Shown here piece after piece: positions 43,095 to 61,471 of a stretch of DNA of 64,000 bases (positions are counted from its first letter, which is position 1; every line of letters begins with the position of its first letter). The translations under genes were made by a program, and so were the position numbers. The notes below the pieces were generated by a model. It was not told the DNA's origin and ran no database searches. It saw nothing but the letters and a program-made list of their open reading frames with translations. Source of the stretch: Nitrospirota bacterium (GTDB taxonomy: Bacteria > Nitrospirota > Thermodesulfovibrionia > Thermodesulfovibrionales > Dissulfurispiraceae); contig JBFLWF010000012.1 of NCBI GenBank assembly GCA_040758355.1, positions 1 to 64,000 of the forward strand, written 5' to 3'.

Positions 43095-43105
43095 TAAACC
43101 GCTTT

Positions 43106-43278: not shown

Positions 43279-44343
43279 CTATTTCCCAAATGGACAAACA
43301 GGATACCTGCACTCCTTGCAATTAAGACATAGACCGCCATGTCCGAGTTCTGCAAGCTCTTTTCTTCCGATCTTTTCTCCTGCGAGTATCCTCGGAAGGA
43401 TTAAATCGAAAATGGTTATCTTATGATACATTCCACAGGCGGGAATGCCGAGAATGGGAATGGATGTAAGGTATGCTGCTAAAAACATCGCTCCAGGAAG
43501 AACTGCGGAGCCGTATGCAATATCGGCTGCGCCAAGCCTCCTTATGGCAAACCTTGTGACATCGTCCGGGTCAACAGACATGCCGCCTGTTGTTATAAGC
43601 AAATCAGCGCCTGCCTCGATTAATTCCTTCAGCCTTGCTTCGATAAATCCTTCGTCATCGGGTGCATAATATATGCCGACAATGCCTCCATCAAACTGTT
43701 CTATCTTTTTCGTGATTACAGTGGCAAAGGCATCTTTTATCCTCCCATAATAGACCTCGTTGCCGGTAATAACGACTCCGATCTTCGGTTTTCTCATTTC
43801 TTTAATCTCTATGATCTTACCTGCGGATTCAGTGATTCTCACTGCTTCTTCAACCACATTTCTCTTGACCACCAGCGGTATAGCCCTTGTTCCGGCCACA
43901 ACCTGACCTCTCTTTACCACGGTGTTGCCATGAAGGGTTGCACACATCACATCGCCTAACATATTGAATTGAGTAAGGGCGTGTTTATTTACCTTCAGAA
44001 GCCCGTCTCTGTCAGCAATTATGTTTATCTTTCCTTCCTTTGGTTCGCCCTCCACTGTAACGCCTTCACCCATGAGGGCATTGGCAAGGGCATATGCTGC
44101 ATCGTCTTCATGAACTTCGTCTTCAGCGATATTTAAAACAAATAAATGCTCTTTCCCAATTTTTCGAAGATGGTTTATGTCTTCCTCCTTGATGATATGG
44201 CCTTTTCTAAATGCCCTTCCCTTGAACTCGTCCCTGCGTATTTCTGTAATGTCATGTGCCAATACCATTCCTACAGCTTCTGCTACAGGTATTGTCCTGG
44301 CGCCTGACATGCTCCTTATTTCGTTATTCTGCACGTCGCACAT
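43279..44343 (-). CDS. Molybdopterin-binding/biosynthesis protein (MoeA/MoaB-like domain)
   Basis: GMVLAHDIT, TGNEV, TTGGMSVDPDD, GSAVLPG, C-terminal GGLCLNC..C.YP.CPFGK. Confidence 0.82.
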   Translation of the reverse strand: MCDVQNNEIRSMSGARTIPVAEAVGMVLAHDITEIRRDEFKGRAFRKGHIIKEEDINHLRKIGKEHLFVLNIAEDEVHEDDAAYALANALMGEGVTVEGEPKEGKINIIADRDGLLKVNKHALTQFNMLGDVMCATLHGNTVVKRGQVVAGTRAIPLVVKRNVVEEAVRITESAGKIIEIKEMRKPKIGVVITGNEVYYGRIKDAFATVITKKIEQFDGGIVGIYYAPDDEGFIEARLKELIEAGADLLITTGGMSVDPDDVTRFAIRRLGAADIAYGSAVLPGAMFLAAYLTSIPILGIPACGMYHKITIFDLILPRILAGEKIGRKELAELGHGGLCLNCKECRYPVCPFGK

Positions 44344-44355
44344 AGAGCCTCCTTC

Positions 44356-44655
44356 CTATAACTCCTTCCCGGCATTCGCAGTAATTGTTATCTTCTGGAA
44401 CCATAAAATCCCTTTCAAAGGTGACAGCATTCCTTTTAAAGTATTTTGTATTAATGTCTTTGCAAAGTCTTTTTTTATGTCTATCTCTCCATTTTCGGTA
44501 TAAATACGAAGCTCATCGTATTCGATACAGATGGTTACATTCCTTGGGTTATAGCCCAGGGACCTCGCAATTGCACACAGGACGTTTGCAATATAATTCT
44601 GTGTAAAGTCATTAAGGGGAACTACACGATTATTTACCAGAAGGCTCGTTTTCAA
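44356..44655 (-). CDS. Hypothetical protein (99 aa), resembles small MobB C-terminal-type domains
   Basis: LVNNRVVPLNDFTQNYI..GMLSPLKG; co-oriented and overlapping within the operon. Confidence 0.6.
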   Translation of the reverse strand: MKTSLLVNNRVVPLNDFTQNYIANVLCAIARSLGYNPRNVTICIEYDELRIYTENGEIDIKKDFAKTLIQNTLKGMLSPLKGILWFQKITITANAGKEL

Positions 44656-45259
44656 TTGTGTTTTGCGTTCTTGAAATTATTAAAGCTGTTATTCCCGCAC
44701 CTGCAGAATAGAATTTACTACCTTGTTCGAAATTTTTAATCTCCTTTGCAAGTTCGTCTATCCAATTCAGATGACTGCCGAGAAATTCCATTTGTTCCTC
44801 AATGTCTCCATTAATGCATAAAAACGCCATATACTCCATCTCAAGTGCTATGTGGTCTGGCATGGATGAATATTTATCCGGTATGACGATGTCGCGAGCC
44901 TGATAGCGCTTGATCATGTCCATCGCAGGGTCTCCCATCAGATAGCCTTTCTCTCCCGCCATAGGCAGCCTGCATTCGGGATCGCTCGACCATCTCTTAT
45001 AAACGCTTTCAACAGGAACGATATAAGGCGGTAACGGGCCCTCAAATAGCCTTCTGTATTCATCTTTAAGAATATTATATACATCACCGCTTACTAAAAA
45101 CCCCGAAAGGCAGGATGTATCAAGATCGAGTGCAGAGAATACTTCTTTGAAATAGTCGAGGAGTCTGCCTGACGCGACATCATCGGCAAACTCCTCTGTG
45201 GGTTCCTTGAAAAACTCACTTAATTGAGCGTATAGGTTTGCCAGGAATACTTTATTCAA
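44630..45259 (-). CDS. TorD/DmsD family chaperone
   Basis: YRRLF, PVESVY, PDHIALEMEYM, HL.W. Confidence 0.88.
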   Translation of the reverse strand: MNKVFLANLYAQLSEFFKEPTEEFADDVASGRLLDYFKEVFSALDLDTSCLSGFLVSGDVYNILKDEYRRLFEGPLPPYIVPVESVYKRWSSDPECRLPMAGEKGYLMGDPAMDMIKRYQARDIVIPDKYSSMPDHIALEMEYMAFLCINGDIEEQMEFLGSHLNWIDELAKEIKNFEQGSKFYSAGAGITALIISRTQNTIENEPSGK

Positions 45260-45794
45260 GCTTTAATCGCTCCAGATAAATGGTAGACGGCTTTGTTCCA
45301 AACTTATTTATATCACGAAACCACCGTCCATCTGACTTTGCTTTCGCAATGAGATCGTCGGACTTCCCGAAACTCAATGCATGTCCCGGGCACTTGGTAA
45401 CACATGCAGGTTTTTCATCCCTCGCAAGCCTGTGTGCGCAATATGTGCATTTGTCAGCAACCATTTTATCCTCATCAAACCCCATGGCTCCGTAAGGACA
45501 CGCCCATGAACAATAACGGCACCCAATACATTTGCTTTTGTCTATAAGCACAACGCCGTCTCCTTCCCTTTTATAAATCGCTCCGGTAGGGCATGCCTGT
45601 TTGCAAGCAGGCTTTCCGCAATGCATGCACGGCATTGAAACAAAGTAGAGCTTATTGCCTCCTTGCGGATTCACCCATATTAACTTGGTTCTGTATCTGC
45701 CTTCCCCTATGCCATTTTCAAGTTTGCACGCAGTCTCGCATGATTTGCATCCAATGCATCTTTCTAAATCAACCATTATCGTATATCGACTCAT
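45252..45794 (-). CDS. 4x[4Fe-4S] electron-transfer subunit (DmsB/PsrB/NrfC family)
   Basis: CIGCKSCETAC, CMHCGKPAC..ACP, CIGCRYCSWACP, CTYC...PACVTKCP. Confidence 0.93.
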   Translation of the reverse strand: MSRYTIMVDLERCIGCKSCETACKLENGIGEGRYRTKLIWVNPQGGNKLYFVSMPCMHCGKPACKQACPTGAIYKREGDGVVLIDKSKCIGCRYCSWACPYGAMGFDEDKMVADKCTYCAHRLARDEKPACVTKCPGHALSFGKSDDLIAKAKSDGRWFRDINKFGTKPSTIYLERLKLE

Positions 45795-45809
45795 TTTCCG
45801 CCTCCTTTG

Positions 45810-48206
45810 CTATGCCTTTGTTACTTTGCATATCAGCGCTTTAAAATTTATCTGATCGGAAACAGGACACCTCTTGTTCTTATCAACAATAAAGTTTAAC
45901 GATTTCCACTGGGTAAACGGCTGTTTTTCGGAATATGTGTTCGGCACGAAAACAGTGTCTTTCCTGATACCCTCATAAACCCATGCCTTTGCAAATACAT
46001 ACCCCTTCAGTCCCTCTACCTTTACCTTATCGCCGTTCTGAATTCCTATTTCTATCGCCTTTTCAGGATGTATCATGCAGTACTGGTCGGGCGTCTGCTC
46101 GCAGAGATTCCAGAGCCAGTGGCTGCCGTCGCCAAAGTGTGCCGCGGATGGCCTGCCTGATGTAAGATACATGTCAAAGCCCGACATCTCGGGCTTCTCG
46201 GGATATTTGATCTTTACCCGCCGCGCCCTCATGTTGCCTACAGCCACTATGCCTTTCATCAGAGAGGTAATGCCCACCGACGAATCGTCATCAAGATATT
46301 CAAGATAAGGAAGACCGTCCTTCATCCCGATCTCAGGGTCAACATAAAATTCAGGCAGGGGACTCAATCCCTGAGCCTTATACATTTTTTCCAAATCCTC
46401 AGTCCATATCTCAATCTTTCCTGAGGGTCTCGGGAACTGGCCTTTCTTGCCGGGCACTCCGTGCTTCTCGGTATAAAGAGTGCCTATCTCTGGAGCGTCC
46501 GGAGTCGGAAGCGGTCCTCTCAACGCGCCATCCTTCTTAGCAAAAAATCTCTCGGGCGAAAAACCTGTCTTCTTAGCCATCGCCCTTTGTAAAACCACAG
46601 GGTCTTTGTATTCGTCCTTAAATATATCTCCCCACCCCATCTTCTTGCCGAGTTCGATAAATATCCATCTTTCGGGTTTTGCCTGATGCAGCGGCTGGAT
46701 GACCTGAGGTACAAATACGTTTCTCCTCTCATCGGAAACAGGAGCAACCCCTCCTGATTCGGCCCATGGAGACACAGGAAGAATATAGTCGAAATAGAAT
46801 GTCTCTATGCTCGGAAACATATTGTAGTACACGGAGACCTCAAGGTTATCCAGCGCCGTCATTACCCTTTCGATGTCTCCCCATTGTACGAGCGGATTGC
46901 AGCATGCCATGAATGCCTTTATGGGATAAGGCTTCCCTGTGATCATCGGCTCAACCCATGCGATAGGAGACCTTCCGAGCCTCTGTTTTTTTGGTTTTAC
47001 TTCCTTATCGGCAGGCACGGAAATGCTTCCCATTGGCGTTGCGCCTGTATTTCCGCAGCCGTATCCCATTGAAGGCTTTCCGAAATGACCTGTTATGGCG
47101 GCAAGCATAAAGAACGCCCTGTGGGTCAGATGGCCGTTTGTGTGGTGGCTCAAGCCGGCGTTGCCCATGATTATCGCCTTTTCAGTCTTTGCGTATTCCT
47201 CCGCAAGCTCTTTAATCGTCTTTGCAGAAATTCCCGTAATTTTCTCAGCCCATTCGGGTGTGTATTTTTTCTCGATAAGAAACGCCTTGAGTTTATCAAA
47301 GCCAAGCACCTTATTATTTATGAAGTCCTGATTTTGCAGGTTCTTCTCTATGATGTGATACATCATAGAAAGCGCCAACGCCATATCTGTCGAGGGCTTT
47401 ATCGGGAGCCATACATCTGCCCTGCTTGCAGCCTCGGACATCCTCGGGTCGACCACAATAAATTTTGTCTTCCTTTTTATCCTTTCATCATTCGTTGCTC
47501 CGAACGCTACAGGTTTACATGCAGCCATATTACTGCCGACAAACATGTACCAGTCTGCGCCGCCGAAATCTTCTCTCGTGTATGTCCACGGCGGGTTGTT
47601 ATGTCCTAAAATGGAATTTGAAGCGGTCGTTCCCGCAAGATTACAAAAAGGGCCGGTTCCTTCGCGATGCGGAGTGCCGTAAAGTTTCTCGAACGTCCCT
47701 GTCAGCCCCGCTCTTGCCTGGGATTCGCTCCTACCTCCGGTCCACCACGCAAGCGCCTCGGGGCCGTATTTCTCTTTAACCGCTTTAAGTTTATCTGCAA
47801 TCTCAGTTAATGCCTGCTCCCAGCTTATCTCCTGATATGATTCCGGCTTGCCCCTCGGCCCTATGCGCTTTAAAGGAGCCTTCAGGCGGTATTTGTTATA
47901 CAGCATGTTCACGCTGTTCTGTCCCTTCGGACAGAGCTTGCCGCCTGTTACAGGGTCGTCAGGATTGCCGTAAATATTAATAATCCTCCCTGCCTTTACA
48001 TGCACCTTCATGCTGCATCCCGTCTGACACCATTGACAGCCTGCTGTCACCGCCCTGTCGGGCATAGGCGCTATACCGCTTTCGGCATATGGTTTATGGG
48101 TTTTAAAATTTTCCGTGCCTTTTACACTTAAAGGCATTCCCGCAACTGCCGCAGCGGCGCCTGCAACCTTTAGAAATGTCCTTCTTGAAAGCCTTAGCTT
48201 ATCCAT
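45810..48206 (-). CDS. Tat-exported Mo/W-bisPGD oxidoreductase catalytic subunit (Psr/Phs-like; substrate unknown)
   Basis: SRRTFLK Tat motif, CQWCQTGC...LCPKG FS0, ISWEQAL, VDPR, probable Cys ligand GPFCN; AAGGAGG RBS before ATG 48206. Confidence 0.9.
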   Translation of the reverse strand: MDKLRLSRRTFLKVAGAAAAVAGMPLSVKGTENFKTHKPYAESGIAPMPDRAVTAGCQWCQTGCSMKVHVKAGRIINIYGNPDDPVTGGKLCPKGQNSVNMLYNKYRLKAPLKRIGPRGKPESYQEISWEQALTEIADKLKAVKEKYGPEALAWWTGGRSESQARAGLTGTFEKLYGTPHREGTGPFCNLAGTTASNSILGHNNPPWTYTREDFGGADWYMFVGSNMAACKPVAFGATNDERIKRKTKFIVVDPRMSEAASRADVWLPIKPSTDMALALSMMYHIIEKNLQNQDFINNKVLGFDKLKAFLIEKKYTPEWAEKITGISAKTIKELAEEYAKTEKAIIMGNAGLSHHTNGHLTHRAFFMLAAITGHFGKPSMGYGCGNTGATPMGSISVPADKEVKPKKQRLGRSPIAWVEPMITGKPYPIKAFMACCNPLVQWGDIERVMTALDNLEVSVYYNMFPSIETFYFDYILPVSPWAESGGVAPVSDERRNVFVPQVIQPLHQAKPERWIFIELGKKMGWGDIFKDEYKDPVVLQRAMAKKTGFSPERFFAKKDGALRGPLPTPDAPEIGTLYTEKHGVPGKKGQFPRPSGKIEIWTEDLEKMYKAQGLSPLPEFYVDPEIGMKDGLPYLEYLDDDSSVGITSLMKGIVAVGNMRARRVKIKYPEKPEMSGFDMYLTSGRPSAAHFGDGSHWLWNLCEQTPDQYCMIHPEKAIEIGIQNGDKVKVEGLKGYVFAKAWVYEGIRKDTVFVPNTYSEKQPFTQWKSLNFIVDKNKRCPVSDQINFKALICKVTKA

Positions 48207-48234
48207 ATCAAACCCTCCTTCTATCCGTATCAAA

Positions 48235-49011
48235 TTAATAAAGCCCGAACGACTTCGAGATAACAGATAGGTCTCCCGTGAGCTTTGCCTTCAGCGCATT
48301 AAGCTTGCCGAGTCTCTTCGTAAACATCTCCTTTACCTTTTCCCTGTGCCGTTTGTCGATGCTCTCTGTTATAAGCTCCCTTCTCTTTTCGGCCCTTTCC
48401 ATGCTATTTATTTCAAGTAAACAACTCTCTATTTTTTTAAGCTCCTCCGACTCCAATGCAACACAGTATTTAAAATTTTCAAAATAGGATGCCGTAACCT
48501 TCAATTCATGCCTGTCAATGTCCTTGAGCCTGCGAATATTTGCTTTCCTGTCTTTATTCACCACAACGCCCCTGTCAATGCACTCATAACCACAGTTGCG
48601 GTACATACTCAGACTGCCGTTCTCCATAATGAGCGACTCAGGGAAGAGACGGCAGTGAATAGGCCTGATATCATAAACCGAACACTTGCCGTCTTTGAGA
48701 AATCTGCATGGGAATATCAGCCCTACAGAAGGGATAAGGAGGCACGTGCCCGGTATCCTGTTCCATATCACCTCGCAGTAGTCCTTAAAAAAATCCCCAC
48801 CCCTCATCGAGAGATGCTTGCACAGCCTGATAATATCTCCCAGTGTCAGTTCAAGGGGATTGCCCTTGTCAGTGCAGCACCGAACACATCCGTCAATACA
48901 TCGAAAGCCTCTGTTGTCCGGGGACAGTCCCGAATCAGAGCCTGCTCCGTTTAATACGGGGGCTTCGCCCGTAATTCTGGGACAGTCCCCTTTTCTGTCT
49001 TTAACACCCAC
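48235..49011 (-). CDS. YkgJ-family (CxxCxxCC) Fe-S/zinc-binding protein; start uncertain (GTG 49011)
   Basis: FRCIDGCVRCC, PCRFL..GKCSVY..RPIHCRLFP. Confidence 0.8.
   Translation of the reverse strand: MGVKDRKGDCPRITGEAPVLNGAGSDSGLSPDNRGFRCIDGCVRCCTDKGNPLELTLGDIIRLCKHLSMRGGDFFKDYCEVIWNRIPGTCLLIPSVGLIFPCRFLKDGKCSVYDIRPIHCRLFPESLIMENGSLSMYRNCGYECIDRGVVVNKDRKANIRRLKDIDRHELKVTASYFENFKYCVALESEELKKIESCLLEINSMERAEKRRELITESIDKRHREKVKEMFTKRLGKLNALKAKLTGDLSVISKSFGLY
48920..48990. repeat. GGGACAGTCCC-type palindromic element with an internal hairpin
   Basis: Two GGGACAGTCCC cores (48921, 48979) enclosing TACGGG-ggcttcg-CCCGTA; same core as 55003-55039. Confidence 0.75.
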
Positions 49012-49936
49012 AGGCCTCTTCCACAGAGATGTTGAGCTGTGATGTTGCCTTCTGTCCGTTTTCATCTTCAACAGTTAAGACAACCGCATAAACGCCCTGT
49101 GTAAATGTATGCTGGGCCTCTTTACCTGTAGCGCTTTCCCCATCTCCGAAGTCCCATCTTATGGATTTGATCCTGCCGCTTCCGCCTCCAATAATGGCCT
49201 TGAATTTAACTGTATAGGGTGCATCGCCTCTCCTGTTTTTTACGCCGCCGATCTTTACCTTAAGCGGTCCTCCAGAAGCCAGTTCTTCTTCAACAAGCAG
49301 ACTGCCGCCAAGACGCTTTGAAGCCTTCATCAATGAGTCCCTTGTTTTGTCCTGCATCTGCGCTGGAGCAGCAATGCTTCCGCCTATCTTCTGGACTGCC
49401 TGCTGTCCGTCATCCACCCTCAACTTGTTTACTCCCATATCCACAACTACCCTTCCCAAAATGGACCAGATGGTGAACTCTTTCTTTGCGTCATCATATT
49501 TCAGTGCAAATTCAGCGCCCTGAGTCATAATGGGAACATTGCCTGCACTGATCTCAAAGTGAGTAAACAGGTGTTCGGGAACCTGAGCCTTTGCAAATAT
49601 GCGGCCCTTTTCCAGTGTAAGGAGCGTCTTTTCCATGTTCCTGTCGCTCTCAAAGATAACTCCCTTCAGGATAATGGATGTTTCAGGATAAATTTCTACA
49701 ATGCCGCCGTTTGACCATGTAAGGACAACGGCAGAATTAGCGCCTGTGGCAATCTTTTCATCCCTCTGAACAATGTCGCCCTCTTTCAACGGAATACCGT
49801 TTTTTGTTACCGTACCATCTACCCTTGTAGCCCTCACTACAGATGCATCCTCGGCATAGGCGCTAACAACGCCGACAAGCAAGATGCAATAAAACAAAAC
49901 ACTTAACACCAACACATTTCTGAAAAGTCTGAACAC
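49001..49936 (-). CDS. Exported FecR-like plus PKD domain protein ending in CGC
   Basis: Signal peptide; FecR-like GD.V....IATG.NS.V.L; PKD motif WDFGDG...HTF..G.Y.V.LTV.D. Confidence 0.75.
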   Translation of the reverse strand: MFRLFRNVLVLSVLFYCILLVGVVSAYAEDASVVRATRVDGTVTKNGIPLKEGDIVQRDEKIATGANSAVVLTWSNGGIVEIYPETSIILKGVIFESDRNMEKTLLTLEKGRIFAKAQVPEHLFTHFEISAGNVPIMTQGAEFALKYDDAKKEFTIWSILGRVVVDMGVNKLRVDDGQQAVQKIGGSIAAPAQMQDKTRDSLMKASKRLGGSLLVEEELASGGPLKVKIGGVKNRRGDAPYTVKFKAIIGGGSGRIKSIRWDFGDGESATGKEAQHTFTQGVYAVVLTVEDENGQKATSQLNISVEEACGC

Positions 49937-50029
49937 TTTCTAATACCTCCTGATTTTTGGTTCCTAATTTCTTGTTCCTTTAGCTTCTATTTTTTTGGGT
50001 CCCTGTGCCACAGAGCAGAAGGATTTGCG

Positions 50030-50365
50030 TCAACCGGCCTCGACATCGATGGTTGTGCTCGCAGTGTATATCCTGCCGTCTCCATCCCAGACCTCCAGCA
50101 CCACATTACATTTCCCGTATTCGTAATAATGCGGTGGAGGGGTCTTTTCAGAACTCTCTTCTCCGTCTCCAAAGTACCAGTGAAACTTCAAAGGTTCTTT
50201 CAGTTTTCTTATCTTTGGTTCGAGCAGCCACATGGTGCCGCTCTCCGATGTCGGGACAGCAATAATCTCTACCCTGCCAGCCTTCTGTTCTTCAGCAAAG
50301 ACATTCCCCGAGATCACAATGACCGCACTGCATACGACAAAAATATGGAAGAGGATTTTAACCAT
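50030..50365 (-). CDS. Exported small PKD-domain protein (possible UGA read-through to 49964)
   Basis: Signal peptide; FHWYFGDG...PPHYY..G...V.L.V.D PKD pattern. Confidence 0.75.
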   Translation of the reverse strand: MVKILFHIFVVCSAVIVISGNVFAEEQKAGRVEIIAVPTSESGTMWLLEPKIRKLKEPLKFHWYFGDGEESSEKTPPPHYYEYGKCNVVLEVWDGDGRIYTASTTIDVEAG

Positions 50366-50368
50366 AAT

Positions 50369-53081: not shown

Positions 53082-53779
53082 ATCTCCTCTCCTTCCTTAC
53101 AGACCTTTGCATAGAGTTCTGAAACATATTCTTCTTCGCTCTTCATAAACTCTATTATGAAATTGGCAACGGCCTTATAAAATCCGTATTCCGCCCTTTC
53201 GATGATCTTTTCACAGCATCGATACACCCACTTTAAAAGGTGCTCTTCCAAAAACATCTTCTGGAACTCGACACATTTCTGTAGCGATTCAATCCCGGTC
53301 TTTTCCCATGACTCCCTCTCTATCCCGCAAAGAAAGGCCATAAACTCCAATTCCATTCCAAGGTGATCCGGCATCTCGGTGCACTCTTTTAGAATATCCG
53401 CTCCCGCCTTTTCATAAAATTGGCCTACGCTTATGGTAATCCTGCCTCCGAGTTTCTTATCTTTGTCGAGATACACGGCCTCGTGCGGCAACAAATCCGA
53501 CGGAAGAACAAACAAAGCGGTATGATCCGCCTCCAATTCTTCCTTAAGGTTCGGCATCTTCTCGGCCTGCCTTACGAATTCGAACAGTCCCGCGGGATAA
53601 GACTCTATACCTTCGCCGTCTTCGTAATTGTCCTGAAAGACCGACAATATGCTTCCGTCTCTTATCATCGCGATCAAAGAATCCGAAGGCGGCTTAAGAC
53701 AGAGACCCGATAAAAACCTGTATGTCCTTTCCCTTTCTCCAGCTGTTATGGCTTCAAATTCGCTCACTTTAACCTCCAT
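53063..53779 (-). CDS. TorD/DmsD family chaperone
   Basis: PHEAVY, MPDHLGMELEFM, FLEEHLLKW. Confidence 0.9.
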   Translation of the reverse strand: MEVKVSEFEAITAGERERTYRFLSGLCLKPPSDSLIAMIRDGSILSVFQDNYEDGEGIESYPAGLFEFVRQAEKMPNLKEELEADHTALFVLPSDLLPHEAVYLDKDKKLGGRITISVGQFYEKAGADILKECTEMPDHLGMELEFMAFLCGIERESWEKTGIESLQKCVEFQKMFLEEHLLKWVYRCCEKIIERAEYGFYKAVANFIIEFMKSEEEYVSELYAKVCKEGEEICETVA

Positions 53780-53781
53780 CT

Positions 53782-54969
53782 CTATGTCGATGCTTTAATA
53801 AACCCGTTTTGAATAAACGCCATCTGTTTTTTATGCCTGCTCACACATAAAGGGCATATATCCCCGCCGATATCCTGAGATTCGGTATCTCCGGCCGTTT
53901 GAACAAATTCGAACCTGCATATGGAGCAGGTCTTTCTTTCGCTTTCAAAAAGCGTGATCTCCGCGTTCTCCATCAGATAATTCAGCCTTGCCGTCTCTTT
54001 TATTTTTATAGCATTAGGCATGCAGGTCTCCACGCAGACCTTGCAGTTAACACACAATGCCGGTTTAAAGCTCAAATGAAATTTTCCGGCCTCCTGCCTT
54101 TGGGTTAAAGCACCGGCAGGACAGAGCGTAGCACAGACACCGCAGCCGGTGCATCCGGAAGATACCTCAAGCTCCGCAAGTATTGCGCCGGTTGACGGCA
54201 CATGCGTTTCTTTGGAAGACGAAAACCCCTCAAGCGCCTGCATCAGGAGATTCCTTTTAAAATTTTCGGGTTTCTTAGAGATAGCTCCGATAAATGTTTC
54301 TTTCTGCTCTCCTTCGATTCCGACATCTGGAATGGATGTTACTGCCACCTCAGCCGCCTTTGCCCTGAGCGCGGAGAATAATTCCCTCCTCGAAACCGCT
54401 TTCTCCGGCATTTTCGATAAAGGCTGAAGCGATATGTTCTTTATAACAAGCCTGTCCTTTTCTATGCCCGCCGTCTCATAAATAATCGAAACGTTATTAA
54501 TAACCCTGTCGATATTGGTGGAAGCCTTTGAATTCGGACACGCCGCGCATTCGGGGCGCGATATCTCTATATTCAAAACGCCCGCCTTTATAGGCTCAAG
54601 AAGCGTAGCCTCGCTGAGACGTCCGAGGCACGGCACCATAAGGTCGGCGCTGTCGTCTCCACGCTGACATGAAATACGGAATACTTTTGCTTTCTTAGAC
54701 TTTTCTCTTATTTCAGCAACGATCTTTTCATCAGCCGTTTCCTTCATCCTGAAAACGCCGTTTGGACACGCGGAAACGCATACTCCGCAATCTACGCAGC
54801 CTGCTTTTATCTCCGCTCCGTCCTCCGAAATGCCGACAGCGTCCGCAGGGCACGAATCGGCGCAGATCGAACAATCCGATTTCGGCGTCCTGAAACGCGA
54901 ACATAAAGACGCTTCTATCAGGATATGATGATTATTGATAATTTTATCCGCTACTTCTGCAACTCCCAT
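53782..54969 (-). CDS. Multi-[4Fe-4S] ferredoxin-like protein
   Basis: CSICADSCP, CVDCGVCVSACP, CTGCGVCATLCP, CVNCKVCVETC; GAGGTG RBS before ATG 54969. Confidence 0.85.
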   Translation of the reverse strand: MGVAEVADKIINNHHILIEASLCSRFRTPKSDCSICADSCPADAVGISEDGAEIKAGCVDCGVCVSACPNGVFRMKETADEKIVAEIREKSKKAKVFRISCQRGDDSADLMVPCLGRLSEATLLEPIKAGVLNIEISRPECAACPNSKASTNIDRVINNVSIIYETAGIEKDRLVIKNISLQPLSKMPEKAVSRRELFSALRAKAAEVAVTSIPDVGIEGEQKETFIGAISKKPENFKRNLLMQALEGFSSSKETHVPSTGAILAELEVSSGCTGCGVCATLCPAGALTQRQEAGKFHLSFKPALCVNCKVCVETCMPNAIKIKETARLNYLMENAEITLFESERKTCSICRFEFVQTAGDTESQDIGGDICPLCVSRHKKQMAFIQNGFIKAST

Positions 54970-55002
54970 GCTTGCACCTCTCAAAATTAGTTTTCGGTTA
55001 TC

Positions 55003-55039
55003 GGGGACAGTCCCTGTCTTAATAACAGGGACTGTCCCC
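55003..55039. repeat. 15-bp perfect inverted repeat of GGGACAGTCCC type
   Basis: GGGGACAGTCCCTGT-cttaata-ACAGGGACTGTCCCC, intergenic. Confidence 0.85.
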
Positions 55040-55057
55040 TTTGCCTTAAAACCCTTA

Positions 55058-55684
55058 CTACTTCGTATACAGCGTCGACGGCTCCGTGCTTGTCTTCGCA
55101 CCGATGAATCCCAGAGAAACCCTCTCTGCCCGTTTCTCCCTGATGAGTTTTGTAAGGGAGTCTATCTCGCCGAAGAACCTTGTCCTCGCAATACATGTAT
55201 CAACGCAGGCAGGACGGAGTCCTTTCTCTAACCTATGCACGCAGAGCGTGCATTTTTCCATTACCTTTGCCTCGGCATTGAACTGCGGATGTCCGTAAGG
55301 GCACGCCCACGCGCAATACCTGCAGCCGATGCATTTGTCCTTGTTGATAAGAACTATCCCGTCCTCTTTCCTCTTTGTGATTGCCCCGACCGGGCAAGCC
55401 GCCATGCAGGCCGGCTTCCCTCAATGCATACAGGGCATCGGCACAAAGTAGACCCTTAAATCTGGCTTTTCCTTCTGATTTTTAAATTCTCCGACTTCGA
55501 TCTCCATTACCCGGTTGTAATCCACGCCTACGGGAGTATTGTTCTCTCCCTTGCACGCCATGGTGCAGGCATGGCAACCGACGCAGTATTCGAGATCGAC
55601 CCAGAGCGTATACTGCTTAGGACCCGGTTTTTTAAAACTGGCCTCTAAGACTTCATCCGGTACAAAAGTCCCTAATTCCGACAT
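55058..55684 (-). CDS. 4x[4Fe-4S] subunit (DmsB/TtrB/NrfC family) with an in-frame UGA, probable selenoprotein
   Basis: ORFs 55421-55684 and 55058-55405 are in one frame; TGA (55421-55423) gives PCMH-U-GKPAC..ACP, against PCMH-C-GKPAC in the paralog at 45252. Confidence 0.8.
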
Positions 55685-55697
55685 ACCGTCCTCCTTT

Positions 55698-58694
55698 TTA
55701 TAACCTTTCGACCCTTAGAGGCGTACCGAAACTCTGCGTACCACCTCCTATGGGGTCAACCAGCACCCTATTTTTCAAAACAGGGTCGGCCATATAAAGC
55801 GGGTTTATATGGAAACCTGCGCCTACTCTTTCATCATGAGGCTGCTCTTTGCCGTTCATATGCCACTTGCCTTTCGGCGAGCCGGCTCCGAACCTTCCGT
55901 AAGACTGGCACACAGAGAACAACCCCGGCCTTATCCTGCTTGTAACCCTGATCTGGAATTTAAACCAGCCGTTGCCAAGATAGTTTGGATAAAACTGTTT
56001 TATGAGCTTGCGGAAATTTTTGTACATATCCGTCTCTATTTGTCCGCTGGAAGGAGACTTTGCCTTGACCCAGTCGCCTGTCTTAACGCCCAGTCTCTCG
56101 GCATCCGCAGGGTTTATCTCCGCATAGTTCTGAGGCTTGATGGATGCGAGCCACAGGTTGTTCATTGTCCTCGACTGGGTATGGAAGGCTTCCTTATTCG
56201 TGTGAAGCTGCATCGGATATTCATTCCAGATCGCTGGATCAAGGGGCTGCTCTTTGCAGTCAACGATAGTCCTGTACATCGGCAGACCATCCATATACTC
56301 GCCAGTCATAGCGTTTTTATATGTGGAGACCTTTTCGAGGAAAGCAAAGAGTACGCGCACCTGCCTGCCTCCGGGGAATGATGTGTACTCGCCCGAGGAA
56401 TAGTCTTTTGTGTATTGATGTTTTGGCGACGGGTTCTGGAATTTCCCGCCCAGCTTCACAAGACTGCTTTTCGGGTCCAATCCATCCTTAAAGTCTTTGT
56501 GCTTATAATATTCGTTCCAGAACTGCCATGAATTGTTGATATCCACGCCCGGTCCGCCTCCGTCTTTCCCGAATGCAGGAAGACCGCATTCTTTTGAGAT
56601 CATTATGAGAATATCATCAGCCATTTTTGTGTCAGGTCTTATGGGCTTATAATCATGGGTCTTTGGATCGAAAGATCCTACTACAGGCTGTCTTAATGCC
56701 CATACCTGTGTTTTTACCGGCGGGTATGTCTTAAATCCTCCGAGTCTTTCGAGGTATTCGGTATCAGGAAGCACATAGTCGCAAAGCTGGGTCGTCTCTC
56801 CCATATATGCATCTATGGAGAATGTCAAAGGCATTGCCTTCAAATCCAAAAGCGCCTCGATAGTCTCCTGATTATAAGGCATTGTATAGGCAGGGTCGTT
56901 GTAGTAATTGAGATATGCCTTATTCTTGTAAGGATACCCCATTCTCACATTGGAGAAGAAGTTCGGAGTCACGCTTCTCGGAGCGCTATAACCGGAGTAC
57001 CACGGCCTTGAAGCAGTCGGCTTCTTTCCCTGATATGCAGCCTTTGCCGTGTCGGCCCGGATGCCTGAAGGCTTCCGTTTTTCCTTAGCCTTTACATCGC
57101 CTTTATAAGCCGCATGCCCTGAGATAAAACCGCCTTTCCTGTCGATATTGTCAACGAGCATGTTTATGATGCAGAGCGCCTGCCCGTTATACCAGCCGTT
57201 TGACTGCTGGACAGGGCCGCGGAACATCTCGATTGCAGGGCGTTTTGCGGATGTGAATTCCTTTGCGATGTGGGCGATCGTTCCAGCCGGTATATCGCAT
57301 ACGGCATCGCACTCTGCGAGGGTTTTCTCCTGAGCCCTTTCTCTGAGCATCCTGAATACAGTCTTGTACTCAACGCCGTTTAAGACATAGCTTGCATCGA
57401 GGTCTGCAAACCCGTCCGCATCCTGAAACATCTTAGGCTGTCCGCCGACAAGCACCACAAAGTCGCTCTGGCCGAGGCCTGCGTCTTTTCCTGTAAGGTA
57501 CTTCCTCGGCTTGGTCGTGCTGACAAGGTATGTCATGTCCGTCCAGTTCCTGTAGCCCTTTTTCTTTGCGACCTTTTCATTTGGTATGGTAAGGTATTCC
57601 TTTTTATACCCGTTGTTCTCTATCATCCATCTGATCATACCCAACAGGAAATACGCGTCCGTTGTCGGCTTTATAGGAACCCATTCGCCAACGCCGTTAT
57701 GCGTTGCCTTTGCAGCGGCATTCGTAAACCTCGGGTCAACCACGACATGCTTGAAATTCTTTGCATCCGGATTAAGCCTCTTTCCGAATTTCTGCAAATA
57801 CCGGGCCCTCGTCTGCATGGGATAGTCTGCCTGAGTGACATTAGAGCCCATGCTTATCAAGTAATCGCAGTATTCATAATCGCAATAGCTCCCTATTTCG
57901 TAGGGAGGTAAATTCAAATTTGCCTCTACAACAGTGTAGAAGGTGCCGGCGCAACGGCTGCAATGGTTGAGCATATGCGGAACGCCGCAGGCGTCAACGA
58001 CAAACCTCGGCGTCAGAGGCGACTGCTCATTCCTGCCATGCGCCCAGACAAACTGGTTCCTTTTCGGTCCCCATCCGCCTGGGGGAGCTTCGTCCATATA
58101 GGCCGAATCCTCAGGTCCTATGGGCTTATCGTTGCTCAGTATGGATTTCAATCCTTCAACATTACGGTTCTCTTCTCCGGGAACATTCTTGAAGAGATAA
58201 CCGCCGTGGCATATCTCCTTAATAGCCTGATCCCACGAAATGGTCTTCCATTTACCTGATCCCCTCGGCCCAACTCTTTTAAGCGGATGCTGGAGTCTGA
58301 AGGGGCTGTAAAGGGCAAAGATGCCTGCCTGCCCTTTCGGACAGAGCGAACCTACGTCCTTTCCTGTAGGCCCTGCATCGAGGTCTGACTCCTCGACTAT
58401 ATCGCCCTTAGCAGTATAGTCGTAAGTGTTCGGATGGTAAGGATTGCCCGTAAGCCTCGCAAGCTCTCCGTTTACTACCTTTGCCTGAATGCCGCACCCT
58501 CCGTGGCACATAAGGCAGACGCTTCTTACTATCTTCATCTCTCCGTCAACCGGGTCCGGCTGTGAGCCGGACTTGCCTATCTGCTTTTTCCACTCTGCTG
58601 CCTCAACATCTTTGAAATTCGATGCTACCGCGGCAGCAGTAATAGTAGCTGCAGAAAGCTTTAGAAAAGACCTTCTTTTCATCTCGGTATTCAT
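55698..58694 (-). CDS. Tat-exported Mo/W-bisPGD oxidoreductase catalytic subunit (TtrA/SrdA/ArrA-related; substrate unknown)
   Basis: KRRSFLK Tat motif, CLMCHGGC...GNPYHP...LCPKG, ISWDQA, LPDTEYLER; 998 aa. Confidence 0.9.
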   Translation of the reverse strand: MNTEMKRRSFLKLSAATITAAAVASNFKDVEAAEWKKQIGKSGSQPDPVDGEMKIVRSVCLMCHGGCGIQAKVVNGELARLTGNPYHPNTYDYTAKGDIVEESDLDAGPTGKDVGSLCPKGQAGIFALYSPFRLQHPLKRVGPRGSGKWKTISWDQAIKEICHGGYLFKNVPGEENRNVEGLKSILSNDKPIGPEDSAYMDEAPPGGWGPKRNQFVWAHGRNEQSPLTPRFVVDACGVPHMLNHCSRCAGTFYTVVEANLNLPPYEIGSYCDYEYCDYLISMGSNVTQADYPMQTRARYLQKFGKRLNPDAKNFKHVVVDPRFTNAAAKATHNGVGEWVPIKPTTDAYFLLGMIRWMIENNGYKKEYLTIPNEKVAKKKGYRNWTDMTYLVSTTKPRKYLTGKDAGLGQSDFVVLVGGQPKMFQDADGFADLDASYVLNGVEYKTVFRMLRERAQEKTLAECDAVCDIPAGTIAHIAKEFTSAKRPAIEMFRGPVQQSNGWYNGQALCIINMLVDNIDRKGGFISGHAAYKGDVKAKEKRKPSGIRADTAKAAYQGKKPTASRPWYSGYSAPRSVTPNFFSNVRMGYPYKNKAYLNYYNDPAYTMPYNQETIEALLDLKAMPLTFSIDAYMGETTQLCDYVLPDTEYLERLGGFKTYPPVKTQVWALRQPVVGSFDPKTHDYKPIRPDTKMADDILIMISKECGLPAFGKDGGGPGVDINNSWQFWNEYYKHKDFKDGLDPKSSLVKLGGKFQNPSPKHQYTKDYSSGEYTSFPGGRQVRVLFAFLEKVSTYKNAMTGEYMDGLPMYRTIVDCKEQPLDPAIWNEYPMQLHTNKEAFHTQSRTMNNLWLASIKPQNYAEINPADAERLGVKTGDWVKAKSPSSGQIETDMYKNFRKLIKQFYPNYLGNGWFKFQIRVTSRIRPGLFSVCQSYGRFGAGSPKGKWHMNGKEQPHDERVGAGFHINPLYMADPVLKNRVLVDPIGGGTQSFGTPLRVERL

Positions 58695-58730
58695 GCTTTC
58701 CTCCTCCTTTTTGTTATTAACATAAAGTTT

Positions 58731-59951
58731 TCAAGCCTTCTTCCTGCTCTCAAACCTTAGTTCACCTGTATAAACCGGGATGGCAAACTTCAGCAACAGT
58801 GTATAAAACAAAGCTCCAAGCGCCCATATCCCTATAGTAATAAAGCCTTCTGCCATCGTAGGCCAGTATTCATATATCTCCCCGAGGGTATCGGGAATAA
58901 ATCCGGGGATAATCAGACCCAGACCCTTTTCTATGTATACCCCAAGGATTATTAATACAGCGCCTATGTTTAAGGTTTTAAAATTCTCGCGGGTCTTCGG
59001 TATCAGGAAGATAATAAAGGCTATGACATTAAATATAAGGGCTGTCCACATCCACGGCACCAATAGTTTTTTCCCATGCAGTCCGAAATATAGATATTCC
59101 AATGGAGCCTTGTGAATGCTGTTAGAATAAAACTCCTTAAATACCTCTGCGCCGAACAGGAAAAGATTAATGCCCATGGCATACGCTACCAATTCAGCAA
59201 TTTTAAAGATTGCCCTATTTTCTATCTCCACTCTTGTGAGCTTTCTGATGACCTGAAACAGAATCAACATAATGGCCGGGCCTGAACAAAAGGCAGATGC
59301 AAGAAACCTCGGCGCCAGTATGGATGCGTTCCAGAAAGGTCTGGATGGGAATCCATTATATAGAAATGCCGTTACTGTATGTATGCTCACCGCCCATGGG
59401 ATAGAAAGCAATATCAATGGCCAGATTAACGATAGCTTGTATTCCTTCCCGATGGAGAGCCTGTACAGGGCGTAAAGGACAAGAGCAAGGTTTATAAAGA
59501 GATACCCGTTCAAGACTATTACATCCCATGCGAGGAGGGAGGATGGGAAATTCATCATTCCCACAACAGGCAGGAGATGCCAAACCTTTTGCGGCTGCCC
59601 TAAATCAACCATTATGAAGAGTATGCACATGGTAATTGCTGTTATAGCAACCATTTCGCCAAAGAGCACAATCTCCTTAATGGGTTTAAAATTATATAAA
59701 TATGCTGGAACTACCAGAAGGACCGCTGCCGCAGCTACACCAACAAGAAAGGTGAAATTTGCTATGTAAAACCCCCACGATACCTGATCCCTCATAGCGG
59801 TTGTGATCAAACCCTTGTCGATCTGCTGGATATACGCGCTAATTCCAAAAACAATCAGTATACAAAGAAAAGCAACCCATGCATAATACTTTTTACCTCC
59901 CCTCGTTATCTGTAGAAGCGCCTTAAAAAAGTTTTTTATCATGTTATACAT
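58731..59951 (-). CDS. NrfD/PsrC/DsrP family membrane quinol-interacting subunit
   Basis: VSWGFYIANFTFLVGVAAAA, DLGQP, SIHTVTAF, APRFLASAF; about 10 TM segments. Confidence 0.9.
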   Translation of the reverse strand: MYNMIKNFFKALLQITRGGKKYYAWVAFLCILIVFGISAYIQQIDKGLITTAMRDQVSWGFYIANFTFLVGVAAAAVLLVVPAYLYNFKPIKEIVLFGEMVAITAITMCILFIMVDLGQPQKVWHLLPVVGMMNFPSSLLAWDVIVLNGYLFINLALVLYALYRLSIGKEYKLSLIWPLILLSIPWAVSIHTVTAFLYNGFPSRPFWNASILAPRFLASAFCSGPAIMLILFQVIRKLTRVEIENRAIFKIAELVAYAMGINLFLFGAEVFKEFYSNSIHKAPLEYLYFGLHGKKLLVPWMWTALIFNVIAFIIFLIPKTRENFKTLNIGAVLIILGVYIEKGLGLIIPGFIPDTLGEIYEYWPTMAEGFITIGIWALGALFYTLLLKFAIPVYTGELRFESRKKA

Positions 59952-59966
59952 TTACCAACCTCCCTA

Positions 59967-60899
59967 TTAAACTTGCCAGCCAGTAAAGAAGTAATAAAAT
60001 TTTGGCTCAGTATTTATGTCCTCTTTCAACCTGAAGACCCTCTTATTTTCAATAAGGTACCTTATCTCACTTTTAGGGTCTAAAAGATTGCCGAACTTCC
60101 TTGCTCCTACCGGACATACCTCAACGCATGCAGGATATTTGCCTGCCCTTGTCCTCTGTATGCAGAAGGTGCATTTTTCCACAACACCTTTATAGCGCGG
60201 ACGATTCCCAAGATAATGGGTCTCGGGATTTAATTCATTTTGCGGGATATTGGGTTTTGCCCAGTTGAAGCGCCTTGCGCCATAAGGGCATGCAGCCATA
60301 CAGTATCTGCAGCCGATGCACCAGTTATAATCGACAACTATAATGCCGTCGGGCTCTTTCCATGTTGCCTGTGTAGGGCACGCCTTTACGCATGGTGGGT
60401 TCTCGCACTGCTGACACTGTACAGGCATATAAAAGAAGCCCTTCTCGGGGACCTCTTTTGGGTTATAGTATTTCTCGGAATTTTCGAGATCAATCCATTT
60501 ATCGCCCTTCTTGAATCGCAGTACAGAAATCCAGTGGACCTGAGGAGTTCGTGATTGGTTGTTCTCTGCTACACATGCATACACGCAGCGCCTGCAGCCG
60601 ATGCATCTGGAAAGATCAAGGCCATATCCAAACTTTACTCCGGGCCTTGGCTTTGTTGCACTGATATGGATATCCTTCTTCCATTCAAGGGATGCCTCCT
60701 TTTCCAGTTTCTCGATTACCCTTTTGATCTCCTCATCCGTCATCTCCTTGAAGTGCTTCTGGGAAAAAGCATCCCAGTTGAACGCATCTGCAGTTTGCAG
60801 CGGAAGGGCTGATGCAGCAAGACCTGCTGCTGCACCCTTCAAGAATGTCCTTCTATCAAGCCTGAGTCCCATCGGGTTGTTCCTTATTTTCTTTGACAT
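59967..60899 (-). CDS. Tat-exported 4Fe-4S subunit (NrfC/DsrO-like)
   Basis: DRRTFLK, CIGCRRCVYAC, CQQCENPPCVKACP, CIGCRYCMAACP, KCTFC. Confidence 0.92.
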   Translation of the reverse strand: MSKKIRNNPMGLRLDRRTFLKGAAAGLAASALPLQTADAFNWDAFSQKHFKEMTDEEIKRVIEKLEKEASLEWKKDIHISATKPRPGVKFGYGLDLSRCIGCRRCVYACVAENNQSRTPQVHWISVLRFKKGDKWIDLENSEKYYNPKEVPEKGFFYMPVQCQQCENPPCVKACPTQATWKEPDGIIVVDYNWCIGCRYCMAACPYGARRFNWAKPNIPQNELNPETHYLGNRPRYKGVVEKCTFCIQRTRAGKYPACVEVCPVGARKFGNLLDPKSEIRYLIENKRVFRLKEDINTEPKFYYFFTGWQV

Positions 60900-60912
60900 G
60901 GCTGTTTAACCT

Positions 60913-61422
60913 CTACTTTAATTTAATGTCCGCTGGTCTCGTTGGCGGCTGTTTTGGTTCAAACGGTTTAAACCTCGGCTGATGCGGGTCATGGCAGGTT
61001 ACGCAGATACGATAAACCTTTTCTCCGTCCCACATTCCTGTGGTCTTGCCGTGAATACCTGCCTTCCAGTCCCTGATCACAGTTCCATGACACTGGCCGC
61101 AGAGGATGTATGATTTCTCATAATCTATCAACTGTCCGTTGGCTAATTTCAATTTGTCCCCCTCATGACAGTTGAAACACCACTGCTGATCCTCTGCATG
61201 TTTGAGCACTATGTTGGAGTGATTCCCCACCAGTTTTCTCTTTGCTTTGTTAACAGGCAAGTACCTGTGGCACTTGGAACAGGGATAATTCTCAGGAGGC
61301 ATGGGCTTGGTTATAATCAGCTTTGGAACATCTTCTTCTGCATTCCCTGAATTAAAGAAGAATGCCGAAACAAAAAACAATACCGAGAAAATCACTGCTA
61401 ACTTGCTTCTTCTCTTCATCAC
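60913..61422 (-). CDS. Tetraheme c-type cytochrome
   Basis: CSKCH, CFNCH, CGQCH, CVTCH; signal peptide. Confidence 0.9.
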   Translation of the reverse strand: MMKRRSKLAVIFSVLFFVSAFFFNSGNAEEDVPKLIITKPMPPENYPCSKCHRYLPVNKAKRKLVGNHSNIVLKHAEDQQWCFNCHEGDKLKLANGQLIDYEKSYILCGQCHGTVIRDWKAGIHGKTTGMWDGEKVYRICVTCHDPHQPRFKPFEPKQPPTRPADIKLK

Positions 61423-61456
61423 GGACTCCGTTTTAAAAGATTTTTTAGAATGAATA

Positions 61457-61471
61457 ACAAAAACGATGCCA
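61457..61471 (-). promoter_or_regulatory. Putative sigma-54 (-24/-12) promoter
   Basis: TGGCAT-CGTTT-TTGT on the minus strand (consensus TGGCAC-N5-TTGC), 35 nt upstream of the first operon gene. Confidence 0.6.

Follow-up and report, generated by a model that had tools for sequence, protein, structure and literature searches.

Gene content of the locus

The window analyzed here is a stretch of 64,000 nucleotides at the start of contig C12 (JBFLWF010000012.1) of a Nitrospirota genome (2.77 Mb, 99% complete). On its minus strand, 17 tightly packed open reading frames (ORFs; 43279-61422) encode two molybdenum or tungsten oxidoreductases, here called enzymes 1 and 2, together with electron-transfer, chaperone and envelope proteins (Table 1). 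The genes from enzyme 1 to a protein with FecR and PKD domains form a conserved operon with recurring cysteine and predicted selenocysteine (Sec) sites, which we tentatively regard as a thiol/selenol relay for sulfur respiration.

A preliminary description of the window had already listed the 17 co-oriented genes in this order, and Pfam and NCBIfam matches back each of its labels. Likely start positions were corrected for the polyferredoxin (54969), the outer-membrane barrel (52141) and enzyme 2 (48206). The end point that it had chosen, 61471, coincides with that of a sigma-54-type -24/-12 site. The host genome encodes selA, selB and tRNA-Sec, along with dsrAB and aprA. It has 13 genes with a molybdopterin-oxidoreductase domain, among them an ArrA-like gene (1053 bits) and a second TtrA-like gene.

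Table 1. Features of the molybdoenzyme locus. Core, part of the conserved unit; optional, absent from many related loci; TAT, twin-arginine translocation; bisPGD, bis(pyranopterin guanine dinucleotide); SECIS, selenocysteine insertion sequence.
Feature	Position	Strand	Remarks
Sigma-54-type -24/-12 promoter-like site	61457..61471	-	motif recurs 5' of the first gene in related Nitrospirota-type loci; putative function
Tetraheme cytochrome c (optional quinol module)	60913..61422	-	4 CxxCH
TAT-exported NrfC/DsrO-like Fe-S protein (optional quinol module)	59967..60899	-	DsrO 192 bits, cut-off 200
NrfD/DsrP-type membrane quinol subunit (optional)	58731..59951	-	DsrP 432 bits, cut-off 350
Mo/W-bisPGD enzyme 1 (core), TAT, 998 aa, TtrA-related own clade	55698..58694	-	motif N-H-[C/U]245-S-R-C248
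Codon 245 of enzyme 1, TGC here	57960..57962	-	Cys/Sec three residues before the Cys248 codon (57951-57953)
Decayed SECIS-like hairpin of enzyme 1	57923..57942	-	stem as in UGA forms; first loop base G to C
Fe-S subunit 1 (core), predicted selenoprotein, U88 in C-x-x-U	55058..55684	-	UGA 55421-55423
SECIS-like hairpin, Fe-S subunit 1	55381..55397	-	loop 29 nt after UGA
Polyferredoxin (core), no signal peptide seen	53782..54969	-	Pfam/NCBIfam
TorD chaperone 1 (core)	53063..53779	-	Pfam/NCBIfam
Periplasmic di-heme cytochrome c (core), no family match	52131..53081	-	2 CxxCH
Alginate-export-family outer-membrane barrel (core)	50369..52141	-	C472, codon near 50783, in L/M-C-[KRP]-[DE]-R
Small PKD protein, predicted selenoprotein, 133 aa with read-through	49964..50365	-	UGA 50030-50032; tail U-x4-C
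SECIS-like hairpin, small PKD gene	50001..50015	-	G-loop 20 nt after UGA
FecR-domain and PKD protein (core), C-terminus ACGC (C-x-C)	49001..49936	-	family scans, model
YkgJ/CxxCxxCC protein (optional)	48235..48900	-	family scan
Mo/W-bisPGD enzyme 2 (optional), TAT, motif G-P-F-C	45810..48206	-	under all curated cut-offs
Fe-S subunit 2 (optional)	45252..45794	-	Pfam/NCBIfam
TorD chaperone 2 (optional)	44630..45259	-	Pfam/NCBIfam
99-aa protein, weak MobB-related match	44356..44655	-	paralogue (67%) in host ArrA cluster
MoeA-like molybdopterin-binding protein	43279..44343	-	paralogue (77%) in host ArrA cluster

Conserved core and optional parts

A search with enzyme 1 yielded 30 genome loci and 29 metagenome loci. 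Partner genes were counted after dropping three duplicates and including the window, in loci with at least 6.5 kb of sequence downstream. In all 30 informative loci, the Fe-S subunit, polyferredoxin, TorD, barrel and FecR-PKD genes lie 3' of enzyme 1, and gene order was constant across the locus maps. The middle envelope genes, for which a cluster conservation search had been proposed, thus travel with enzyme 1. The conserved unit consists of enzyme 1, Fe-S subunit 1, polyferredoxin, TorD, cytochrome c, barrel, small PKD protein (lacking in some loci) and FecR-PKD protein. Its hosts belong to Nitrospirota, Methylomirabilota, Deltaproteobacteria, Planctomycetes, Armatimonadetes, Sedimenticola, Sulfuritalea and other Rhodocyclales, and the window's enzyme 1 is 88-90% identical to those in named Nitrospirota metagenome-assembled genomes.

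The association was also seen in a sample of 161 genomes of the class, where enzyme 1 was present in 10 and FecR-PKD in 12. All 10 genomes with enzyme 1 had FecR-PKD, and 10 of the 12 with FecR-PKD had enzyme 1; the remaining two are fragmented assemblies.

Other parts of the window's gene run are variable. Among 26 other loci that reach at least 1 kb beyond FecR-PKD, counted by eye, 8 have enzyme 2 at this place and 8 a different Mo enzyme, and the flanks retrieved for the other 10 show no Mo enzyme. Proteobacterial loci lack the cytochrome-NrfC-NrfD block, and some of them carry a cytochrome c554-like gene 3' of FecR-PKD; the YkgJ gene was found only in L005, L006, L012, L062 and one duplicate. 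Since enzyme 2 and the NrfD block are missing from so many loci, we take the stretch from enzyme 1 to FecR-PKD as the core, enzyme 2 as an optional add-on, and the arrangement of two enzymes with one NrfD as a local build. The genes of the proposed 18-kb cluster are therefore real, and the unit that is conserved is smaller.

These counts also bear on the suggestion that two catalytic subunits share the single NrfD module and work in two steps, disproportionating sulfur, selenium or arsenic species one after the other. Enzyme 2 does occur in the same gene run in the window and eight other loci, and in the class sample (4 of 161 genomes) it was never found without enzyme 1. It is, however, missing or replaced in 18 of the 26 informative loci, two of the proteobacterial loci that lack the NrfD module still have it (L023, L050), and the host genome holds a second copy of the NrfD module on another contig (C18:33257-35877; tetraheme cytochrome 57%, NrfC 79% and NrfD 73% identical). 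We consider this two-step scheme very improbable and do not retain it.

The optional cytochrome has four CxxCH motifs in 21 of the 22 relatives printed, and the remaining one ends at a contig edge. The core cytochrome had been described as diheme, which is correct for the window, whereas the eight proteobacterial-type copies printed are triheme.

Predicted selenocysteine sites

UGA codons and cysteine alternate at three sites of the operon: residue 245 of enzyme 1, an Fe-S ligand of Fe-S subunit 1, and the tail of the small PKD protein. In the window genome, UGA is found in Fe-S subunit 1 and the small PKD gene only, and enzyme 1 has Cys245. Probable selenoproteins had been noted before, and by comparative criteria the UGAs of the Fe-S and small PKD genes are indeed members of Sec/Cys pairs: in all three predicted families conserved sequence continues past the UGA, and homologues have cysteine in its place. 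The residue-245 pair had been missed, as had the conserved barrel cysteine and the upstream sensors discussed below.

At codon 245, 7 of the 27 genome loci read TGA (with metagenome loci included and duplicates counted, 10 of 51), and 7 of 9 class relatives had one TGA within the enzyme 1 match. For Fe-S subunit 1, the 27 genome loci including the window divide into 8 with UGA, in the form C-M-H-U, and 19 with Cys. In the small PKD gene of the window, and in those of 14 further distinct loci, a UGA is followed by Cys four or five residues on (U-x3-4-C); 9 distinct ones have the Cys form G-C-G. Treating the UGAs as sequencing errors or signs of pseudogenes was rejected, as the same codon recurs across many genomes. 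A TGA after the FecR-PKD tail was likewise rejected as Sec: 7 of 21 loci have TAA or TAG there, and nothing beyond it is conserved.

We scored a hairpin as SECIS-like if it had a G loop 16-37 nt after the UGA, a criterion that 10% of random TGA sites satisfy as background. For enzyme 1, the same hairpin with a G-started loop 25 nt downstream was present in 6 of 6 distinct UGA forms versus 11 of 34 Cys forms. For the small PKD gene, a hairpin of -3 kcal or lower was found in 10 of 14 TGA rows versus 1 of 9 Cys rows, with a constant loop position and stem sequences that vary by lineage. The test does not discriminate for Fe-S subunit 1, where 11 of 11 distinct UGA forms and 32 of 32 Cys forms had the hairpin. 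An Rfam scan of 42000-64000 returned two tRNAs only, and its SECIS models were without a match.

A quick-search tree of enzyme 1 (33 rows: 29 fetched loci, the window and 3 long-branched outgroups) places all UGA forms within one 12-row clade (support 100). Because the window's Cys form is nested among them and its hairpin has kept the stem and lost the loop G, its enzyme 1 fits a change from Sec to Cys with a leftover SECIS element. All 13 genomes with UGA forms have selA. The 5 of 30 module genomes without selA have Cys forms only, and many genomes with selA have Cys as well.

Many of these Sec forms are stored in databases as split genes, which is why surveys miss them. Eleven close database proteins (P0169-P0176, P0178-P0180) start just past the codon-245 site, and all 6 members of a second subfamily (the P0264 cluster including P0386-P0390, 62%) stop exactly at the His before residue 245; the latter subfamily probably has the same UGA at this site. 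The P0264 cluster (P0386-P0390), P0181 and P0182 make up a sister subfamily known from N-terminal and C-terminal pieces only; a phylum-wide search with P0181, covering 301 genomes, gave no hit to the second subfamily.

We therefore predict enzyme 1, Fe-S subunit 1 and the small PKD protein to be three new selenoprotein families. Among the 119 families in Table 1 of PMC13188914, FdhA and FwdB are the only Mo-bisPGD entries, and the table contains neither a PKD nor an NrfC/DmsB-type family. No model in NCBIfam (June 2026) covers these proteins.

Clade, fold and active site of enzyme 1

Enzyme 1 belongs to the dimethyl sulfoxide (DMSO) reductase (MopB) superfamily, with an N-terminal [4Fe-4S] motif, molybdopterin and dinucleotide-binding domains and the family fold. 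Its clade is tight (at least 66% identity, one cluster at the 50% level). The next full-length relatives are 41-45% identical, and annotated TtrA is 27% identical. TtrA is the best curated model, at 345.6 bits against a cut-off of 1750 (NF011567), and enzyme 1 has H-C-S-R-C in place of the TtrA active-site motif H-G-A-Y-C. The window's NrfD scores 23 bits on the TtrC anchor model and 432 on DsrP. Scores were also far below the cut-off for ArrA/ArxA (82 bits versus 1600), and the sequence G-R-N-E (G-R-N/H-E in the clade) differs from G-R-Y in Arr and from G-R-G-W in Arx, the latter as quoted in PMC13685797. On the PsrA/PhsA model (NF012032, cut-off 694), enzymes 1 and 2 reached 202 and 288 bits. 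The text of PMC10100899 mentions an unnamed lineage sister to TtrA/SrdA, which could be the enzyme 1 clade.

A predicted model of enzyme 1 (pLDDT, the predicted local distance difference test, of 90.5) was closest by Foldseek to ArrA (6cz7, 2.8e-37) and polysulfide reductase PsrA (4.6e-34). Cys248 is near-invariant across 84 aligned relatives and aligns with the Cys of SHSSVC in ArrA and of SVSLC in PsrA, so by homology it is assigned as the Mo ligand. Three residues before it, position 245 is a Cys in 51 of 175 motif-matched proteins, only one of them outside the enzyme 1 clade; sister clades have Thr, Trp or Gly. In ArrA, the counterpart of residue 245 by alignment is the Ser after the His of SHSSVC; we take this Ser to be an arsenate contact.

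Other Mo enzymes were seen along the way. The host's second TtrA-like enzyme (581 bits; C11:11000-14050, L069:7006-10044) lies beside nitric-oxide-reductase-like and NapH-like membrane Fe-S genes. A 955-aa TAT Mo enzyme of the host (C10:36437-39313, L071:6438-9314) falls under all cut-offs and is adjoined by a Nap-like cluster and a PhnD-fold sensor system. A plasmid of Citrobacter arsenatis (L065) carries a TtrA-like operon between ars genes, with the motif H-T-N-I-C, unlike TtrA.

Envelope proteins

Four thiol/selenol sites are conserved outside cofactor ligands. The mature part of the barrel has a single Cys (C472) within a basic motif in 30 of 31 loci. The FecR-PKD protein ends in C-x-C in 118 of 120 homologues; of the exceptions, one is truncated and the other ends in H-F-H and has near-identical C-G-C-tailed sisters with the adjacent accession. 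Its model combines a FecR-type beta domain with a PKD domain, and the less confidently predicted tail is probably flexible. We presume an analogy between this tail and the carrier arm of SoxY; Foldseek with the FecR-PKD protein gave FecR-type and PKD matches only, and no SoxY among the matches listed. Atlas searches returned only the same families.

In complex prediction, the barrel and FecR-PKD scored 0.38, and the best control 0.00. Of 157 solved pairs 116 attain the mark, and of 215 mismatched pairs 2 do, but just 18 of the solved pairs, along with both mismatched ones, attain it with a score of at most 0.60. The runs share at least 54% of contacts, and the partner has a pLDDT of at least 79. 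The prediction weakly supports binding of the barrel to FecR-PKD.

The FecR domain folds like the periplasmic domains of anti-sigma factors (4m0h, PupR 6ovk), so that the two proteins might instead be a cell-surface signalling device. This is hard to believe, as no extracytoplasmic function (ECF) sigma factor was found among the recurring neighbours scanned, FecR-PKD starts with a signal-peptide-like segment and lacks a cytoplasmic anti-sigma domain, a sigma-54 system already covers regulation, and the barrel is not of the TonB-dependent type.

Neighbouring genes and the sulfur reading

The genes around the operon are rich in sulfur-handling families. In the host, a 5' block on the same strand (contig positions 65-80 kb; C12:65100-79720, L070) encodes ArsR, DsrE, DsrE, DsrH, a flavin adenine dinucleotide (FAD) oxidoreductase, MMPL and YeeE/YedE proteins, followed by LolA-like, methyltransferase and DUF1302-like genes, a PhnD-fold sensor, a kinase and a sigma-54 regulator. 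Parts of this block recur beside the module in Nitrospirota and Sedimenticola; the Sedimenticola loci have DsrE, rhodanese and ArsR-rhodanese upstream. Overall, the DUF1302-like gene was found in 13 loci and ArsR or ArsR-rhodanese in 9. dsrA is present in 27 of 30 module-bearing genomes, a count that includes kin that are not independent and has no background correction. Four dsrA matches (G161:C2, G163:C155, G164:C58, G180:C117) hold one TAA, either a true stop near the match end or a break.

Sulfur, selenium or arsenic remains the best substrate class, as had been suggested, and within it we favor sulfur as the leading candidate, though at less than even odds: the core operon may be a thiol/selenol relay that feeds external sulfane sulfur to a TtrA-related Mo enzyme for respiration. 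This reading draws on the TtrA-related clade, the ArrA/polysulfide reductase fold, the four thiol/selenol sites, the dsrA hosts and the Dsr/rhodanese neighbours. Candidate substrates would be polysulfide, chains derived from elemental sulfur (S0) or a polythionate.

From what the loci display (which genes they hold and how well these are conserved, the Cys/UGA pairs, the lone barrel Cys, the C-x-C tail and the TAT signals), we infer four steps. An anionic substrate would enter through the barrel, passing C472 in its basic patch, and would then be held covalently on the U-x3-4-C tail of the small PKD protein and the C-x-C tail of FecR-PKD. Cys/Sec245, beside the Mo-ligand Cys248, would attack the S-S bond, and enzyme 1 would cleave it. 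Finally, the Mo centre and Fe-S chain would swap two electrons with menaquinol through the NrfD module in Nitrospirota, or with periplasmic c-type cytochromes in proteobacteria. The polysulfide reductase MccSep, which according to PMC13510729 combines a metal-ligating Cys with a catalytic Sec that is not a ligand, would be a precedent for such Cys/Sec chemistry by analogy, without homology.

Several observations weigh against this reading. In 10 proteobacterial-type loci the divergent upstream gene encodes a sensor of the AioX/ArxX family (1e-49 to AioX) that has kept the arsenite-binding Cys, and for the characterized members of this family, PMC5908839 describes binding of arsenic oxyanions (and phosphate) alone, with none of thiosulfate or tetrathionate. 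The polyferredoxin and TorD resemble an arsenic-cluster kit: together with the small ORF and MoeA, their closest paralogues are in the host ArrA cluster (28% for polyferredoxin, its sole in-genome paralogue, and 34% for TorD). The likely placement of residue 245 in the substrate funnel comes from alignment and from roles that we assume for ArrA. H-x-H tails, seen in a tandem FecR-PKD duplicate (H-F-H; L056:16915-18647) and a small PKD protein (H-Q-H; L048:7853-8100), fit metal binding better. Two hosts from other phyla (L011, L014) have no dsrA match. The module is absent from all four genomes of the same genus, one of them a single contig with 100% completeness, and given this patchy spread (10 of 161 class genomes) it is not a general route to S0 use.

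Arsenic and selenium as possible alternative substrates

Some of these points would be accommodated by a thioarsenic (or thioantimony) anion, with the relay capturing As-S species, Cys/Sec245 taking the sulfur, and the Mo centre interconverting thioarsenate and arsenite plus sulfide. We regard this explanation as doubtful, while giving it real weight, since it covers the sulfur-carrier neighbours and dsrA hosts together with the arsenic-type sensor. The AioX pocket consists of Tyr88, Cys106, Tyr131, Ser161, Ser163, His192 and Asp210 (PMC5908839). Five of these seven residues are kept in the module sensors, and a sixth, Ser163, is replaced by Thr, the residue that arx-linked paralogues also have. 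At the place of Asp210, the module sensors have Ser (10 of 10 and 4 of 4, two overlapping) and the 6 proteobacterial paralogues Asp. The proteobacterial module sensors are 53-62% identical to paralogues of the L025 sensor that lie beside Arr/Arx-like genes in the same genomes, and they share the pocket motifs of these paralogues except for Asp210. The alignment of residue 245 with the presumed arsenate contact of ArrA points the same way.

A thioarsenic substrate is, on the other hand, without precedent: a literature search at the level of listings gave no thioarsenate enzyme. Nitrospirota-type sensors are PtxB/PhnD-like and lack the arsenite-binding Cys (the sensor upstream in the window genome has Gly at the place of Cys106, and its closest solved relative is PtxB, 2.7e-25), Sedimenticola has ArsR-rhodanese instead, and no recurring ars resistance genes were found in the flanks clustered and scanned. 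A pattern like what we take to be the AioR box was not found 5' of the proteobacterial copies. The fuller form of the idea, a first thioarsenate-respiring system with a sensor that stems from arsenic sensing and was retuned through a single pocket change, a Cys-gated porin, Cys/Sec-tipped PKD carriers and a Mo enzyme with a catalytic Sec that is not a ligand, is slightly more doubtful.

The same sensor family, together with a sigma-54 regulator and the divergent layout of arx clusters, could also indicate a new respiratory arsenate reductase, arsenite oxidase or antimony oxidoreductase, whose thiol tails would chaperone As(III) or Sb(III). The A-B-polyferredoxin-TorD kit common to the host ArrA cluster and the patchy distribution agree with this, and according to PMC10100899 an alternative arsenate reductase belongs to the TtrA lineage. 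We nevertheless think it unlikely. Enzyme 1 misses the ArrA/ArxA motifs, the host already has an ArrA-like enzyme, and S. selenatireducens carries the module (L020) and is reported in PMC5052931 to be unable to respire arsenate; Arr/Arx clusters as presented in PMC6549141 do without a barrel or PKD proteins. Arr/Arx-like genes were found in 12 of the 30 hosts, 9 of them full length and none above the cut-off.

Reduction of selenite, selenate or tellurite, in which the oxyanion would be imported and elemental Se would leave the cell via the MMPL/LolA-like block, is quite unlikely. SrdA belongs to the same broad lineage (PMC10100899), ExtI-type porins have been linked with selenite uptake (PMC5877670), a selenate respirer carries the module, and selD and a TauE gene flank two loci. 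The selenate respirer, S. selenatireducens, has separate Ser/Clr-like enzymes, however, and Sec in a protein says nothing about its substrate; the module persists, in Cys form, in the five genomes that lack selA.

Further observations concern the surroundings of these loci. The host ArrA-like cluster (C3:74473-82600, L068; 1053 bits) contains a B subunit, TorD, polyferredoxin, FmdE, ModE-like and MoeA-like genes, and its upstream pair of a methyl-accepting chemotaxis protein and a kinase resembles the pair at 61560-63963 of the window. The selD and TauE genes lie directly 5' of the operon on the opposite strand (L057:600-2500, L059:5038-6782). At the 3' end, the cluster is adjoined by plus-strand genes for tRNA-Val and tRNA-Asp (43019-43182), a possible integration site in view of its absence from the four same-genus genomes. 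The ordinary genes at 39066-41546 and 41607-42954 encode a ZnuABC-type ABC transporter, an Lpp-like lipoprotein and an L,D-transpeptidase.

Comparison with known systems

The operon is a real, conserved and apparently undescribed variant of the complex iron-sulfur molybdoenzymes. The preliminary description had not recognized it as a known system, and we found no matching operon, nor a description of its Sec sites, in the open full-text literature; supplements of PMC10100899, PMC12998232 and PMC13188914 might list clade members.

With TtrBCA, SrdBCA and the alternative arsenate reductase it shares a TAT Mo-bisPGD subunit of about 1000 residues with a Cys ligand, a 4x[4Fe-4S] partner, an NrfD-type anchor in some hosts, and PhnD-fold sensing. 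It differs from TtrA in sequence and score (27% identity, 346 of 1750 bits) and in the motif H-[C/U]-x-R-C instead of H-G-A-Y-C, and from the lineage in its optional, DsrP-like anchor, its additional barrel, PKD proteins, cytochrome and polyferredoxin, and its Sec forms.

ArrAB and ArxB2ABCD with their XSR regulators offer the closest solved fold (6cz7) and the polyferredoxin and TorD kit, and an AioX/ArxX-family sensor with a sigma-54 system in the proteobacterial module loci only. The module is set apart from them by its score (82 of 1600 bits), G-R-N/H-E, the replacement of Ser by Cys/Sec, Ser at Asp210 of the sensor, and the use of other sensors in its other lineages.

A loose analogy had been drawn to the Geobacter ext cluster. 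The parallel of a porin, sulfur-handling proteins and a selenoenzyme holds for extHIJKL with MccSep, as does that of a metal-ligating Cys close to a Sec that is not a ligand and is the likely nucleophile (PMC13510729; PMC5877670). No homology was found, however: neither window cytochrome matches the ExtKL model, the barrel matches alginate export and not the ExtI type, and the module has a Mo enzyme instead of a multiheme one, PKD tails, and no rhodanese lipoprotein.

PsrABC, PhsABC and the MOLY cluster are likewise periplasmic A-B-TorD Mo enzymes of dsr-bearing anaerobes (PMC12998232). molyA is reported there for all Thermodesulfovibrionaceae members studied, unlike enzymes 1 and 2 with their 10 and 4 of 161 class genomes; the PhsA-like gene on contig C6 (534 bits) would be the likelier molyA of the host.

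The chain of thiols from barrel to Mo would provide a mutable model of how reactive sulfur or thio-metalloid compounds cross the outer membrane, an open question for sulfur oxidizers and disproportionators. Its function is already open to testing, as the Cys form is present in two Sedimenticola strains in culture. If the thioarsenate explanation were true, arsenic and sulfur cycling would be linked in groundwater bacteria of several phyla.

Regardless of the substrate, the three predicted selenoprotein families do not appear in the 119-family catalogue of May 2026 (Table 1 of PMC13188914). They would add Sec as a [4Fe-4S] ligand in an electron-transfer subunit and a DMSO-reductase-family enzyme with Sec beside the metal. 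FdhA and FwdB also have Sec in a Mo/W-bisPGD catalytic subunit, but there it is the metal ligand itself, whereas the predicted Sec of enzyme 1 lies three residues before a ligand Cys that is kept.

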